Shown in pieces: positions 120-9,095 of a stretch of DNA of 64,000 nt. Under the pieces are notes generated by a model. That model did not search any database and was not told the DNA's origin. It was given only the letters and a program-made list of their open reading frames with translations. Position 1 is the stretch's first letter; each line of letters opens with the position of its first letter. A program made the position numbers and the translations under genes. This stretch comes from an uncultured delta proteobacterium (lineage in GTDB: Bacteria > Desulfobacterota > Desulfobaccia > Desulfobaccales > 0-14-0-80-60-11), in assembly GCA_963812015.1 (NCBI GenBank), contig CAWETI010000003.1, positions 448,001 through 512,000 on the forward strand, given 5' to 3'.

Positions 120-950
120 TGGCTTACCCTCCGGAATAATTTTGCAACCTGGATTCACTAATTAGAAAAGAGTCGGTCGGAAAGTGTTAAGAGAGATTAT
201 TTGTTTTATGGTAAGTAATTAATATTCATTACCCAAGATTGCTAAGACCGAAATCTCATGGAATTCGTAATAGTTAAGATTTAAACCTATAGAAAAGTAT
301 CCTGCTCATCACCCTTCCATGGTCATTATAACCATAGGAAAATGGTCATTTCGTGCATCTGACCCATTGATCCGGTCTCGGGAGCAGGCATCCTGTTTGA
401 AACCAACCTCATCAACTATTACGAAACCAATTAACCAGGACCCTTAAGGCGAAAGGTAAGGTTCGCCATTTCCCTGCCTTTTTTGTTGCCAACATGGAAT
501 TAGTTGATATCTCCTATGTGCAAAGGTCAAGATAGCCGAGGTCGGGCGGCGTCCGGGTAGAATTCAAACCAGTCTCCTATTCGTGGTTCCCCGCTCAGGT
601 GGGAGCGTTCTATAACTTGCCAGAACCGAGGCTTCCCAAAAACTTTAAAAAATTAGCGATATAATCCGCCTATCGAAATAGGGGATTGACAGTTCCATCT
701 CCAGGATATCTCTATTGACGCATGAGAGCTCCCAGGTAAAACGATAACCCCAGACATTAACTTCCTCCCGTGCACCACGCCACCAGTGTCTTCCTCGGGG
801 TTTTGGTCGTGCGTCAGCATTAATCTGGCCGGGGGGATAAAAAAATTGATTTTAAGGAATTTTTGTGCTTCATTACTATATGTCTGTTGGGCTCGGAAGG
901 GAAAAGTGGTAACTTTGATTAATAACAAAACTAATTGGGAGAGATTACCA

Positions 951-1211: not shown

Positions 1212-1505
1212 TCCATCTCTCTTTACAGAGGACCCGGACTAACACTTCGACGGCTATAACGGCAAGGGGCATTCTGTTTGAACCAGAATGCCCCTTGAAG
1301 TTGTCCGCCACCTTCAAGAAAATCAGCCTATCCAACTAAATATAATACAAAAGTTACTGTAAGAGCCTTCACTACCCTTCGCTAAATTATAGATGTGCAA
1401 GAATAGCGGCTATCTTGCTAAAACTAAAAAATATCCCCAAGGCACAGAAAATTTTGTATATGATTCGAATATCGAATGTGGGGTAAGCAAAGGAGGCTCT
1501 CCACC

Positions 1506-1736
1506 ATGCCTAAGTTGAGAATAATTCTTTTTATTTATGCAATTGTGGCCTTTGTGGGTTGTGGATTAGCAGATATCCCAGCCCAAAACCGAGCCATTGA
1601 GGAAGAGAATATGCGGGTTTATGACATATATCAATCTTATATGAGGAGCATGAACGAACAACGCGAGGAAACCGGCCTAACTCCCGAGAGGATCAAATCT
1701 TTTGAGGAATGGAAGGGATCTCCGGGCACCCAATAA
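1506..1736 (+). CDS. Small putative lipoprotein
   Basis: AGGAGG RBS; signal peptide ending in lipobox-like FVGC. Confidence 0.6.
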   Translation: MPKLRIILFIYAIVAFVGCGLADIPAQNRAIEEENMRVYDIYQSYMRSMNEQREETGLTPERIKSFEEWKGSPGTQ

Positions 1737-1918
1737 TGATGACTTTCCAAGGATATAACTTCATTCAGATTATTAAAATATAGATATGGCCTGAATATGG
1801 AAGGTTTTTGGCTTCCTGATAAGTGTCGGATCATAGATGCTATGAAAGGTTCCTTAAGTAAGCCTCTTGGTATAAAAGTGGAGTTCCTCAAGAAAAAAAC
1901 AGGAAAAGGAGGCTTACC

Positions 1919-3070
1919 ATGGACCACAAGCAGGGAAACCAGGGTCGAGAACAGAGCGCCCAGGTGCCGGTTTTGTACGTCGCCTTCGAACTGGCTAACA
2001 GCACCTGGAAGATGGCGTGCACCGATGGCAGCAAGTTGCGGCATCTCACCGTGACTGCTGGGGACCTGGCCCAAGTCCAAAGAGCGATTATCGGAGCCAA
2101 GCGGCATTTCGGTATGGGGGACAAGGTGCACACGGTGAGCTGTTATGAGGCCGGACGTGACGGTTTTTGGCTGCACCGGTATTTGCACAGCTGCGGGATA
2201 GACAATGTGGTGGTGGACTCTGCCAGCCTGGAAGTGAACCGGCGGTTGCGGAGGGCGAAAACCGACCGGGTCGATGCGGGGAAACTATTGAGCATGCTGC
2301 TCCGCTATCACGGCGGGGAGAAGCACCTGTGGCGGGTGGTGCGGGTGCCGAGCCGGGAGGATGAGGACGCCAGGCATTTACACCGGGAATTGGAGGCCTT
2401 GAAGAGCGAGCGGACCCGGCACCGCAACCGGATCCATGGGATTTTGATTCAACAAGGGCTGCGTGTCAGCAACCCGAGCACGAAAAAGTTTGTCAAGGAG
2501 TTGGAACTCATGCGCACCTGGGAAGGCCGGGAATTGCCAGCCGAGATGAAGGTGCGGCTGGTACGGGTGCATGAACGGCTACGCATGGTGGAGGAGCAGA
2601 TCAGCGGCCTGGCAAAAGAGAAAACGCAGCTTCTTAAAGTAGAGAACGCCAGGATGGCGCAAGTGGCCCAGCTCCTGAGGCTGCCCGGGATCGGCCCGGT
2701 AAGTTCCTGGACCTTCGTCATGGAGTTTTTCGGCTGGCGCCGTTTTCGGAACCGCCGGGAAGTGGCCGCCCTGGCGGGCCTGACCTCTACCCCTTACGAC
2801 AGCGGCAAGAGGTTGCGAGAACAAGGGATCAGTAAAGCGGGTAACCGGAGGGTGCGCACCCTGGCCATTGAGATCGCCTGGGCCTGGCTGCGGTTTCAAC
2901 CCCGAAGCAAGTTAAGCCGGTGGTTCCTGGAAAGGTTTGCCGCTGGCGGGAGCCGCATGCGACGCATCGGCATCGTGGCCCTGGCCCGGCGGCTGCTCAT
3001 CGATCTGTGGCGTTTTCTGGAGTACGGGGTGGTCCCGGAAGGAGCCCAGGTAAGGCCACTGGCAATTTAA
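1919..3070 (+). CDS. IS110-family transposase/recombinase
   Basis: RuvC-like N-domain (YVAFEL, CYEAG, AKTDRVDA), coiled coil, LPGIGP, TPYDSG with catalytic Ser, ISKAGNRRVR, IVALARRL. Confidence 0.95.
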   Translation: MDHKQGNQGREQSAQVPVLYVAFELANSTWKMACTDGSKLRHLTVTAGDLAQVQRAIIGAKRHFGMGDKVHTVSCYEAGRDGFWLHRYLHSCGIDNVVVDSASLEVNRRLRRAKTDRVDAGKLLSMLLRYHGGEKHLWRVVRVPSREDEDARHLHRELEALKSERTRHRNRIHGILIQQGLRVSNPSTKKFVKELELMRTWEGRELPAEMKVRLVRVHERLRMVEEQISGLAKEKTQLLKVENARMAQVAQLLRLPGIGPVSSWTFVMEFFGWRRFRNRREVAALAGLTSTPYDSGKRLREQGISKAGNRRVRTLAIEIAWAWLRFQPRSKLSRWFLERFAAGGSRMRRIGIVALARRLLIDLWRFLEYGVVPEGAQVRPLAI

Positions 3071-3095
3071 CCCAGAATACGGAGTTGATGTAGAA

Positions 3096-3294
3096 GTTTT
3101 GGTTGGTGAAGTCGCCCGTGTAACTGCTGGGTGCTCTTGAGTCACCGTTTTCATAGAGTGGGCGCTTCAGCAATCGGTTCCCCGCAGCGCAACCCCGCGC
3201 ATGCAGCATGCGGTGCCTGACTAAGAGTCAGCACGGATAGAAGCTTGATGGGGGCTTTGGCCCCATCGATTTACCGGAACCAACCAACCAAAAC
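3096..3294 (+). ncRNA. Putative bridge RNA/seekRNA of the IS110 element
   Basis: 12-bp closing helix 3096-3107/3283-3294; internal loop carrying matches to both flanks of the insertion site (see findings). Confidence 0.75.
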
Positions 3295-3623
3295 GGCTCA
3301 CAGGTCTCTAACAAAAATTGCCTAGGAGGATAGCTCTCTTCGCCTCGGTCTGAGGTTTTTAGCATGCCCCGTCGAGGTGTCAAGGTTTCCCTGCGGCGCC
3401 CTGCGACCTTGACACCTCTTCCTGGGCATGCGGCTGGGGAAGCAGGCCGACGGCGAAGGGATGGCCTTTTGACCTCGGGCTCAGGGATGGAGGTTTAACT
3501 GCCCGGAAGACAAAAAAGGCTTGACAAGAGGAACCCACATAGAAGCAGTTATCGAGAGTTCTAAAGGCGGGTTCTGCCCTTGAGAAAACCTTTTCCTGCT
3601 CATCTCCCTGCCTCCCGTCGATC

Positions 3624-4070
3624 TGGTCTGTTCCCGAAAACTGGACCATTCATAATAAGAAAATTTTGCTAAGATAAACCGATCTGGCAAGTAGGATTTT
3701 CTTGATGAAACGGTCCCGGTTTACCGATCAACAGATTGCCTTTGCCCTGCAGCAGGCTGAGCAGGGGACCCAGGGGCTGAGGTCACCCGCAAGATGGGGA
3801 TTAGCGAGCCAGACCTTTTACCGGTGGAAGAAGAAGTTTGGGGGCCTAATGCCTTCGGAGGTCCGCAAGCTCCGGCAGCTGGAGGAGGAGAACGCCCGGC
3901 TGGGCCGGCTGGTGGCGGATCTGTCCCTGGATAAAGAAATGCTCCAGGAGGTGATCCGAAAAAAGCTCTGAAGCGTGCCCAGGTGCGGGCCACGGTGGAG
4001 CTTTTGCGCACCTATTAACAGGTGAGCATCCGGCGGGCGACCCAGACTCTATCCGGCTCCCGCTCCACCC
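3624..4070 (+). pseudogene. IS3-family remnant: orfA (3705-3971), A6G frameshift motif, truncated orfB
   Basis: MKRSRFTDQQIAFAL...TFYRWKKKFGG...LRQLEEENARL..LVADLSLDK; AAAAAAG at end of orfA; orfB hits a stop after a few codons. Confidence 0.85.
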
Positions 4071-4285: not shown

Positions 4286-5062
4286 ATGGCCCGAAAGATT
4301 ATAACAGTTGCCTTAGTGTTTATCCTCGCAGCTTCCCTATCCGGCTGTGCCACCGAAGGCTATTATTCATCGGGACGATCCGCTGCTGGTGGAGCCATGG
4401 AGCAAAAAGATCCTATTTATGAGGAATTGGCTGAACATGGAAGGATGACGACAGGACAGATAACTATTGTTTATGGCGTGCCATGTGTAGAAGTTATGCT
4501 GAAGAGTGGTGAAAGCATAATGACATTTGTCTATTCCATACCTTCTTTAAAGAAAAAATCTCTTATTGTTCAGGACAGGATTGCTCTCCTTAATAAAACG
4601 CACTATCTATTGATCGTGAATGGTTCCGGTAACATCAGCACCTATAAGGACAAAATATTCGTGCCGCTCGACTATTCGATCGAGCCGAAAATTCTGCCGG
4701 AATTTTTGCCTGGTGCGGCCAATCATGAAAAGTACATTCTGATAGATCGCCGCCAGCAATATCTCGGCCTTTATGAACGGGGAAATTTGAAATACTGTTA
4801 TCCAATTTCTTCCGGAATCAAGAATTCGACGCCTTTAAAAAAATTCGTGGTTAATTATATGGATGAAGTTCATCACTCCAGTAAATATGAACAGGCGCCC
4901 ATGGATCATGCACTGAATATTGGCAAGGATTATTTCATTCATGAAGGAATAGTTCCTGGATATCCCGCATCCCACGGCTGTATCCGGGTGTTTCCCCTTC
5001 ATGCCCGTTTTCTTTTTTATCAGTGGGCCAAGCCGGGAATTCCCGGGAAAATTATAGGTTGA
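4286..5062 (+). CDS. L,D-transpeptidase (YkuD-like) with lipoprotein signal
   Basis: Catalytic motif FIHEG...ASHGCIRV; lipobox LSGC. Confidence 0.85.
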   Translation: MARKIITVALVFILAASLSGCATEGYYSSGRSAAGGAMEQKDPIYEELAEHGRMTTGQITIVYGVPCVEVMLKSGESIMTFVYSIPSLKKKSLIVQDRIALLNKTHYLLIVNGSGNISTYKDKIFVPLDYSIEPKILPEFLPGAANHEKYILIDRRQQYLGLYERGNLKYCYPISSGIKNSTPLKKFVVNYMDEVHHSSKYEQAPMDHALNIGKDYFIHEGIVPGYPASHGCIRVFPLHARFLFYQWAKPGIPGKIIG

Positions 5063-5991: not shown

Positions 5992-7527
5992 TCAACGTTG
6001 ATCCTTTTTCATCTCCTGCGGAACCCCGCCGTAATTTTTGGTGGTGGTTACCAGACCTTTCGAGCCGGTGATATGGTATCGGACCTCCGGTCCCCGGTTG
6101 CTGGCCCGTTCGGTGAGCCGGGCGGCCAGCTCCTTGTAATAGTAGAAAAGGCCCAGGCCGTCCCCCTGGCCCTGGCCCCCCGCCAGAACCAAAGCGCCGC
6201 AGGCGGAATTCGCCACGTCGTCATGCCCGGCCGGGCCGTGGGTTATCATGTCCTTGCCCATGGGCCGCACCCGCCGCTCCAGGCCAAGCAATTCCGAGAG
6301 CAAAGCCTGGTCGTCCAGCAGCTCCACCTGGCCCCTGGTGAACAGGGGCAGGGCCTCCAGGAAGATCTGCGACCTGTCCCTTACCGAGCTCCGATAGTCA
6401 ATGCCGTGCTCCCGGAATGCCGAGACGACCCACTCGGCCGCGTACTTGTCCCCCGTCACTTGAGAGCATTTGAACTCCTTGAGCACCTGGGCATATTCGG
6501 CCACCACCTCACCCGGATTGAAGGGGGGGACCCGCCGCCGGATCACGTCCAAAACAATTTGGCCATCGGCTTCACGGTGCGCCAGGCCCAGGGTGAAGCT
6601 ATCCTGGCGGCCCCCGGAGGGGGCTGCGAAGCCGAAGTACCGCAAACCTTCCTTTGGCGGCAGCTCTCGCCGACCATGAACGACCAGGGGCTCCAGGGTC
6701 TCGATGTCCAGGAACCCCGAAATGTCGTCCCGGAACAGGGCCAGGTACTCGGTCTTGGCGCTTGCGTGGTCCTCAGCCAGTGCCTGCTGCACCACTTCCG
6801 CGGACAGGGTCGGGTTCATGGTCCGGGTGGCCGCCTGCCAGACCAGGACCCGCCCGTCCTTGCCGTAGTAGCGGGAGAATGCCTCCCACATGACACCCTG
6901 TTTGGCGTAGGGTGAGCTTATGGCGATCAATGGCCCACCAGTGGTGGCAAGGCCGGGGCGCAGACTCCGCAAGATCTCCTTGCCGGGGTCCCTGCCCTCC
7001 ACTCTCCAGAAACTTGCTTCTTCCAGAATCACTGCCAACAGGGTGTATCCACGAACGGCCGCCGTGGAGCATGTCAGAATCTTGATGCTCACCCGGTTCT
7101 TCAGCCTTATCTCCTGGGCCAGGTCCGCCTCCACCATGCCCGCCAGGATGGGGGAAAGGCGGAATATCTCCCGGCAATATGAAATGATTATGCCGGCCTG
7201 CTCCCGGTCGTTGGCGATCACGGCCACCAGGCCGATCTCGCCGGGGGCCAAGACGGCCGTATCGGCAAAGGCCGCACTGAAGCAGGCCGTAGCCGCCGTG
7301 ATCCGGGACTTGCCGCCCCGCCTCCCCACTATGAAGTAGACCTCCCCGGCAGGGCCTTGTGGGGCCGCTTGCCGCCCCGTGCATCTCTGATAGAGGGGGA
7401 GGTCAATGTCTGCCAGGGGGAGGCCGTAGGCGGCCTTTAGAGCCGTCCTCCAGGGCTGCCAGGGTGCGAGGTCTGGGAACCCCGCCCCTATCAAATTTCT
7501 GTCTCCAATGGCTTGAATTATATTCAT
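5992..7527 (-). CDS. Terminase large subunit-like protein
   Basis: Walker A GRRGGKS, Walker B AVILEE, ISSP coupling motif, VTGDKYA, C-terminal HDDVANS. Confidence 0.85.
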   Translation of the reverse strand: MNIIQAIGDRNLIGAGFPDLAPWQPWRTALKAAYGLPLADIDLPLYQRCTGRQAAPQGPAGEVYFIVGRRGGKSRITAATACFSAAFADTAVLAPGEIGLVAVIANDREQAGIIISYCREIFRLSPILAGMVEADLAQEIRLKNRVSIKILTCSTAAVRGYTLLAVILEEASFWRVEGRDPGKEILRSLRPGLATTGGPLIAISSPYAKQGVMWEAFSRYYGKDGRVLVWQAATRTMNPTLSAEVVQQALAEDHASAKTEYLALFRDDISGFLDIETLEPLVVHGRRELPPKEGLRYFGFAAPSGGRQDSFTLGLAHREADGQIVLDVIRRRVPPFNPGEVVAEYAQVLKEFKCSQVTGDKYAAEWVVSAFREHGIDYRSSVRDRSQIFLEALPLFTRGQVELLDDQALLSELLGLERRVRPMGKDMITHGPAGHDDVANSACGALVLAGGQGQGDGLGLFYYYKELAARLTERASNRGPEVRYHITGSKGLVTTTKNYGGVPQEMKKDQR

Positions 7528-8474: not shown

Positions 8475-9095
8475 ATGGGACAGTACAAAATCACCCGTGA
8501 CAAGTTCCTTTCCACCGATGAAGTCAAGCGGCTCTTGAAGGTCTGCGAGGAGCAGGCCGACCTCGACTTGCTCAAGGGGCGGCAGACTTGGGTCACCCGG
8601 CATATGCTGGTGGCCCTGGCCCTGCGTAGCGGCCTCAGGGTGGGCGAGATCGCCGCCCTCAAGATCGGGGACATCCACCTGGGAGGACGAGAAACCTATA
8701 TCAGTGTTAGGCGCGGCAAAGGGGACAAGCCCAGGGATGTTTTTTTCAACGGGTCGCTGGTCAAACCCTTGAAGCGGTACATCGACATCAAGGCCAAGAC
8801 CTGGAAGCAGCCTGTCAGCCTGGGTGATTCCCTTTTCTCTCATGGGGAGGGAAAGCCCTTCACCACCATGGCCCTGTACTTCAGCTTCAAGAAGGCCTTG
8901 GAGAAGGCCGGGCTGCCCCTGCATCACACAATCCACCATGCCCGTCATACCTTCGCCACGCATTTGCTGGCTGACACGGGAAACCTCAAATTCGTGCAAA
9001 AACAGCTTGGTCACGAAAACATCGCCCACACCGCTCTCTACGCAGACATCCTCCCGGAGCAGCGGCAGGCCCTGGCCGACAAATTGAGCATTTAG
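8475..9095 (+). CDS. Minimal tyrosine recombinase (catalytic domain only)
   Basis: GLRVGE (R), GKG (K), HHARHTFAT (HxxR), LGH, TALY (Y); 206 aa. Confidence 0.92.
   Translation: MGQYKITRDKFLSTDEVKRLLKVCEEQADLDLLKGRQTWVTRHMLVALALRSGLRVGEIAALKIGDIHLGGRETYISVRRGKGDKPRDVFFNGSLVKPLKRYIDIKAKTWKQPVSLGDSLFSHGEGKPFTTMALYFSFKKALEKAGLPLHHTIHHARHTFATHLLADTGNLKFVQKQLGHENIAHTALYADILPEQRQALADKLSI

Follow-up and report, generated by a model that had tools for sequence, protein, structure and literature searches.

A predicted RNA-guided IS110-family element at the end sites of a dispersed tyrosine-recombinase element in an uncultured delta proteobacterium

Described IS110 and IS1111 systems and the present locus

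The IS110-family locus described here lies in a window of 64,000 nucleotides (the whole stretch of DNA that was analysed, numbered from its first letter) and shares with IS621/ISCro4, as presented in the accessible parts of PMC11208160 and PMC11208158, a two-loop RNA, predicted here, with 9-nt and 4-nt target guides around an inner hairpin (the lengths given for IS621 in PMC11208158), an 11-bp target with a CT core on the opposite strand, a handshake A past the short guide, the donor bases A6 and T7 and a recombinase made of RuvC and serine domains. It differs from them in the position of the RNA, which follows the gene here and precedes it, in the left end, there; in a site that is read opposite to the direction of the gene; in a donor arm forming a multi-branch loop with two extra hairpins; in a first donor guide that misses the core; and in a protein of 383 instead of 326 aa in which E replaces D11. 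The IS1111 seekRNA elements ISEc11, ISKpn4, ISPa11 and IS4321/IS5075, to the extent covered by the available text of PMC11187229, resemble the locus in other respects, these include a non-coding region downstream of the gene, the complement of the top strand coming first in the RNA (here 3120-3128 before 3153-3156), extensions of 7 bp and 3 bp at the ends, and insertion into repeats or the sites of other elements (attC, REP and, going by the title of a cited paper, Tn21 ends). However, the subterminal repeats of those elements are perfect or near-perfect over 11-13 bp whereas ours agree at 10/13 positions with one gap and were absent from the output of an inverted-repeat scan, and their proteins measure 330-350 aa whereas the 383-aa recombinase falls outside the IS1111 protein clade. 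Therefore, we do not file the element as a strict IS1111. A preceding reading of the DNA (hereafter the sequence-only reading) had placed the bottom-strand guide first and implied that this was new; the order is there, and the novelty is not, since seekRNAs of IS1111 have been published in the same arrangement (PMC11187229, in part). The "reversed" order would simply reflect that gene and site are read in opposite directions, and switching the reading strand would reconcile it with the IS621 structure. For ISPpu9, an IS110-group element, recombination also takes place at AG within a dispersed repeat, the target being, unlike ours, a REP sequence (PMC12288879, accessible part).

Among IS110 elements 85.7%, and among IS1111 elements 93.0%, have a predicted bridge RNA according to PMC11208160, whose available text also mentions multi-loop donor arms, and, the mechanism being already published, the present case comes as no surprise. 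The supplement of the same paper, as far as it was accessible, lists proteins of the clade together with ISGdi7, ISRel9, ISAzs35 and ISMno20, and the rows of these four and of some unnamed entries in the published alignment carry the same protein motifs; judged by eye from these motifs alone, they would belong to the same clade. The source table of PMC11187229, in its accessible portion, orders the four outside the IS1111 block, and none of them was named in the papers searched. The RNA of this clade may already have been predicted, either in Supplementary Table 5 of PMC11208160 or in 10.64898/2026.10.21.760802, which covers 32,190 RNAs. What may be new is modest, namely the E-first clade, its target and the sharing of one site by two lineages.

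The element, its ends and its recombinase

Comparison of sequences establishes the ends of the element, its 2-nt core, the fold of its RNA and how the target loop pairs with the site of insertion (Table 1). Where the target is empty, its sequence is GGATCATAG-CAG, with 12 exact occurrences in the genome, and contigs from two DNA runs diverge from the window after base 1836 to continue with CAG (two contigs in X1, possibly the sample of origin, and ten in X2). Therefore, the element extends from base 1837 through 3543 with AG on both sides, and this short common core (1835-1836 and 3544-3545) goes without duplication, as the second copy also indicates. The element is intact and the genome carries it twice, the copy at C3:892186-890470 being identical to that in the window and differing in its flanks; window 1837-3543 together with one AG core is thus very probably an autonomous IS110-family bridge-recombinase element.

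Table 1. Predicted features of the element and of its flanks, in window coordinates
Feature	Position	Strand	Basis
Left flank: right end of the dispersed tyrosine-recombinase element, ending ...GGATCAT-AG	1780..1836	+	9-copy profile
AG core, left copy (CT on the opposite strand)	1835..1836	+	Empty sites, second copy
Element left end, with imperfect subterminal repeat 1842-1854	1837..1918	+	Identical in copy 2
IS110-family recombinase, 383 aa; E24-E77-D116-D119 and S295	1919..3070	+	PF01548, PF02371, NF033542
Bridge RNA (predicted)	3096..3294	+	Closing helix 3096-3107/3283-3294, fold, profile
Target guide 1 (9 nt), complementary to the core and to 7 nt of the right flank	3120..3128	+	Positions 6-9 covary; pairing stops at 10
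Target guide 2, 4 nt (2 flank bases and core)	3153..3156	+	32/32 at -4 to -1, 8/32 at -5 (close loci)
Handshake dinucleotide, target loop	3157..3158	+	First base equals element base 1837, not target
Donor guide 1 (weak)	3203..3211	+	Only 3205-3209 match the left end
Donor guide 2, last 5 right-end bases and core	3237..3243	+	Invariant in alignment A1
Handshake dinucleotide, donor loop	3244..3245	+	First base tracks first flank base past core
Variable hairpin-rich spacer, RNA to right end	3295..3520	+	RNA-to-end distance ~66-273 nt in relatives; z = -2.38
Right end: TTGACA 3521-3526, subterminal repeat 3529-3540, 3-bp extension	3521..3543	+	Sequence, copy 2
Right copy of the AG core, with the 7 bases that guide 1 reads in the target	3544..3552	+	Sequence, copy 2, covariation

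These boundaries depart from those drawn beforehand, in which a TAGA-containing core went with a longer empty site and a shorter circle junction. The empty target reconstructed on that basis, GGATCATAGAAGCAG, does not occur in the genome, where GGATCATAGCAG occurs 12 times; the core read from the empty sites, copy 2 and the contig breaks is AG, and the junction had been drawn with misplaced ends. The four-base geometry can draw on the presence of ATAGA at both ends and on a copy of the target repeat at C3:882152 which has the sequence ATAGAAGCAG, exceeds the other copies by three bases and fits a deletion between such repeats. This copy is possibly a scar of that kind, left by deletion between the ATAGA repeats at the element ends, or a product of chance, there being seven such 10-mers in the genome. 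Set against the 12 exact empty sites, the breaking of contigs after 1836 and the left flanks of relatives, which end in AGAG, AAAG, GTAG or TCAG and share only AG with the right end, a TAGA core is scarcely credible.

With AG as the core, the end extensions amount to 7 bp on the left (1835-1841) and 3 bp on the right (3541-3543), the left subterminal repeat starting 7 bp in, core included, and the non-coding DNA amounts to 82 bp 5' and 473 bp 3' of the gene. A left-end remnant was found at C2:328303, within the same repeat that the element targets, and a right-end remnant at C3:885260. The hairpin spacer at window 3335-3500 is replaced by other sequences in relatives, and DNA resembling it is present in 15 of 40 related genomes; some of these spacer-like copies are orphan right ends lying just past a recombinase-type site and some have no bridge RNA nearby.

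The recombinase matches PF01548 (RuvC-like) and PF02371 (Tnp) and reaches 195 bits against NF033542, whose cut-off is 140. Structure comparison matched the C-terminal half of the protein to the IS621/ISCro4 entries PDB 8wt6-9 and 9t56 (E 1e-8 and 4e-8). Its catalytic set reads E-E-D-D plus S, with near-complete conservation among the aligned loci of E24 (112/112), E77 (114/114), D116 (114/115), D119 (115/115), S295 (114/119) and the adjoining G296 (119/119). E thus replaces the first D of the DEDD set in all 112 loci, and E24 is the putative first catalytic residue. Searches of the available literature returned no such E-for-D active site. The protein is 25-31% identical to four IS1111-block proteins and stands outside their clade in a tree of 21 rows that has these four as IS1111 references, few references overall and long branches.

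On the model described for IS621 (circle, junction promoter, serine chemistry and strand exchange, from the accessible parts of PMC11208158 and PMC13626964; a 2026 preprint, in its available part, argues for single-strand copy-out), the element would excise or copy itself out as an AG-joined circle whose joint would put TTGACA beside a weak -10, allowing gene and RNA to be transcribed. The two RNA loops would let a recombinase tetramer hold both the target and the circle, a serine of the enzyme would cut beside the core and the strands would be swapped, the handshake bases then pairing with the incoming strands to favour insertion. At the predicted circle junction, TTGACA stands 17-18 nt from a -10-like hexamer in 37/37 end pairs, the letters of this hexamer being partly fixed by the search pattern; in the window element the -10 is weak (3/6, spacing 18). 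A promoter scan of the linear element gave one weak site only, at chance level. No end-to-end joint was present in the contigs of four runs, a result without weight in either direction because contigs drop rare forms.

Guide RNA, covariation and handshake bases

The region 3096-3294 is, on the comparisons below, the predicted bridge RNA of the element, as anticipated in the sequence-only reading, which had also recognized correctly the perfect 12-bp helix that closes it (3096-3107/3283-3294). The plus strand folds with z = -4.28, none of 200 shuffles being as good, and the minus strand with z = -3.55; since the latter folds well too, the single-sequence fold leaves the strand undecided. A profile of the RNA built from 49 close loci found it behind the gene in 109 of 122 loci, truncated contigs being among the 13 without a match. 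In 36 aligned relatives, picked as near-complete and distinct, 99.2% of the cells at the 44 consensus pairs are paired, compared with 32-45% in slid controls, and 9 of the 44 vary on both sides, many of these double changes reflecting a single clade split. The loop layout proposed before stood in its two stems and second arm, which are kept in these 36 relatives, and less so in its inner hairpin, of which only the first three pairs enter the consensus. An Rfam search over 1500-4000 gave two weak matches far under the gathering score, none of them on the RNA. In the RNA runs X19 and X20, 5-6% of the words were present, with contigs from relatives only.

The two matches on which the guides were originally proposed were confirmed to different extent. 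The exact reverse complementarity of 3121-3128 to 3544-3551 held on comparison; that of 3151-3157 to the left flank is also exact as an identity (to 1831-1837), its final A being however the handshake base and not a match to the target, and the match of 3151-3156 to the left flank holds at the window site only. Dinucleotide shuffling of the 199 nt, repeated 20000 times, produced the 8-mer 20 times, the 6-mer TCATAG 335 times and never both together.

Covariation across homologues, suggested as a check in the same reading, was found in close and distant relatives alike. The 49 close loci yielded 32 unique pairs of guide and right flank, the remaining loci having no right end that fitted the search pattern. 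For guide 1 the match at positions 1-5 is almost invariant among these pairs; it holds in 27/32 at position 6 (12.3 in shuffles), 30/32 at position 7 (20.6), 31/32 at position 8 (28.2) and 22/32 at position 9 (10.1; 29 when wobble is counted), and the pairing stops at position 10 (3/32). For guide 2 in close relatives (33 left pairs, or 32 after leaving out one with a deletion) the pairing is confined to the 4 nt ATAG/AGAG, and the variation at -3 (T in 25, G in 7) comes from one clade split. Of the 74 distant loci, 55 conformed to the pattern set for the loops, a fixed rule deciding between two registers, and here guide 1 agreed with the flank at 175 of 252 positions in 36 unique pairs (shuffles 78.2 +/- 8.6, maximum 109), while guide 2, which in these relatives measures 7 nt, agreed in 21-23 of 24 pairs at each of five flank positions (6-12 in shuffles). 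As relatives are not independent, these shuffle values overstate the significance. The guides fit poorly in L009, L039, L024 and L154, the last with three mismatches in 9. The distant loci come from hosts labelled Chloroflexota, Acidobacteriota, Gemmatimonadota and Cupriavidus; guides are wholly unlike between lineages and match their flanks all the same. The target guides covary with the insertion sites and can pair with both target strands, the 9-nt guide coming first and the 4-nt guide second, so that the RNA, as in IS621, would read an 11-bp site which on the opposite strand runs 7 + CT + 2. Identical loops at unrelated sites had been named beforehand as an observation that would speak against guiding; the identical copy 2 lies at ATAG-CAGTAAC, which has 10 of the 11 bases of the predicted target and a single mismatch to guide 1. 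Both the covariation and this site therefore agree with the earlier proposal of an IS110-family guide RNA with readable target guides.

The matches are short, the target is part of a repeat with a palindromic shape, and ISPpu10 gains specificity from a DNA stem-loop (10.64898/2026.03.19.712850, accessible part), so that structure or a bound protein may contribute to the choice of site. Nevertheless, it is highly improbable that the matches are chance or relics and that protein or DNA structure alone picks the site, considering that guide and flank change together across several phyla and that the joint match arose in 0/20000 shuffles. What emerges, together with RNA guiding, is a naturally reprogrammed family, with one RNA scaffold and dozens of guides across several phyla, and its members, as predicted systems, are candidates for genome-editing screens; the natural covariation at the donor-loop handshake base and the E-for-D active site add to its value.

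The donor loop is less uniform in its agreement. The second arm had been described as weakly matching the circle junction; against the corrected junction, donor guide 2 (ATAGAAG) matches better, at 7/7, and the other guide is still weak, at 5/9 with both core positions missed. Being invariant, donor guide 2 gives no covariation test. In L005-type relatives donor guide 1 matches at 4/9 and the change in their left end is not tracked. The handshake bases behave as published in both loops, covariation being apparent at the first base only. In the target loop the dinucleotide is AT in 55/55 distant loci, whose left ends begin with AT (as the left-end search pattern required); in the donor loop the first base is identical to the flank in 53 of 67 cases, the other 14 being U-G wobbles (shuffle mean 32.7, maximum 44), and the second agrees with the flank in only 5/67. 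This donor-loop covariation lends independent support to AG as the core. A seekRNA mode, with the target loop alone guiding, the protein recognizing the ends through the subterminal repeats and the second arm reduced to scaffold or part of a precursor, would account for the weak donor guide 1 and the untracked left ends of L005-type relatives, and is in line with the 7/3 end geometry of IS1111 and with ISEc11, for which the available text of PMC11187229 describes a short target-loop RNA as sufficient. On the other hand, donor guide 2 matches invariantly at 7/7, and the base past it covaries with the target, which the handshake model explains only if the second loop is in the complex. We thus judge the seekRNA mode unlikely and favour guiding by both loops.

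The targeted recombination site and its neighbourhood

The DNA to the left of the element belongs to a small tyrosine-recombinase element whose ends are present about 30 times in the genome; the profile built on 9 seed copies returned 35 sites, of which 31 had E ≤ 0.05. The left end of this repeat reads CTTGCCA...TTATC and the right end GATAAG...CATAGCAG, each adjoining a variable four-base centre, and its copies, of ~110 bp, ~230 bp or lone ends, cluster among accessory genes and integrases. Both ends flank a broken tyrosine recombinase gene at C2:302465-303523. The gene is present in 12 of 40 related genomes; among 10 of its loci the left end lies at the same offset in 6 and the right end in 3, a further right end lying at another offset in a cut locus, and both ends fit strict patterns only in the genome's own copy. 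Intactness of the gene was judged from open frames of 262 aa. No target-site duplication of the repeat was seen by eye. The palindromic shape of the repeat suggested an integron attC identity, which was dropped since genes run in both directions between sites, the end tetramers of neighbouring sites are by eye non-complementary, and both ends flank the recombinase gene; the tyrosine recombinase itself reached at best 25 bits as an integron integrase, where the cut-off is 265. Weak left-end copies of the tyrosine-recombinase element were also seen at window 608, 1406 and 5850 (E 0.0007-0.014), less than 6 kb away.

Nine of 33 close left flanks match the repeat profile, and a GATAT-N7-ATAT repeat motif occurs at -54 to -56 in 23 of 32 unique close flanks (shuffle mean 1.7, maximum 7). 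The close branch would therefore specialise on this family of tyrosine-recombinase sites, the lineage aiming at one arm of the end site plus its variable 4-bp centre. The ends of tyrosine-recombinase elements thereby join the repeats targeted by such elements; no IS110 with such a target was found in the literature since 2024 as searched by title and the start of abstracts.

A second IS110 (C2:800056-801425; gene L123:8152-9207, 352 aa, 28.6% identical to the window recombinase) abuts the other arm of this tyrosine-recombinase site; its core is AG, and its guides seem by eye to come in the same order. Taken together, we lean slightly towards the following reading. An EEDD clade outside the IS1111 protein group would have an RNA of IS621 shape downstream of its gene and would read its sites in reverse, the order of guides then depending on how the element is laid out rather than on the family of its protein. 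In one branch of the clade, a target guide would have contracted to 4 nt, and this branch would have become a specialist for the end site of the tyrosine-recombinase mini-element, with positions 6-9 retuned to the variable centre; an unrelated IS110 would have converged on the other arm, resulting in two RNA-guided parasites of one recombination site.

Other observations concern the second IS110 and the surroundings of both elements. The downstream RNA of the second IS110 contains a copy of the arm that it adjoins, and its orphan right ends stand against left ends of the tyrosine-recombinase element at window 505-680 and at C3:804364, 837930 and 839845. A decayed copy at C3:887006-888176 has the right end twice (C3:888033-888176), and after the first of these stands the sequence which, in the RNA gene of this element, comes after the guide, as though the element had recombined into its own guide DNA.

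To the right of the window element lie a short HTH_Tnp_1 transposase piece (3702-3971), a YkuD transpeptidase (4286-5062), a 511-aa protein without Pfam or NCBIfam match (5992-7527), which looks terminase-like from its P-loop, and a short tyrosine recombinase (8502-9053). Elsewhere, an Mla-type ABC transporter operon is found twice (L121:1573-5081 and L128:3269-6777) with identical lengths and scores, each time near repeat copies, and a c-di-GMP-I-GGC riboswitch (L122:4025-4103) precedes a GGDEF gene in a repeat cluster.
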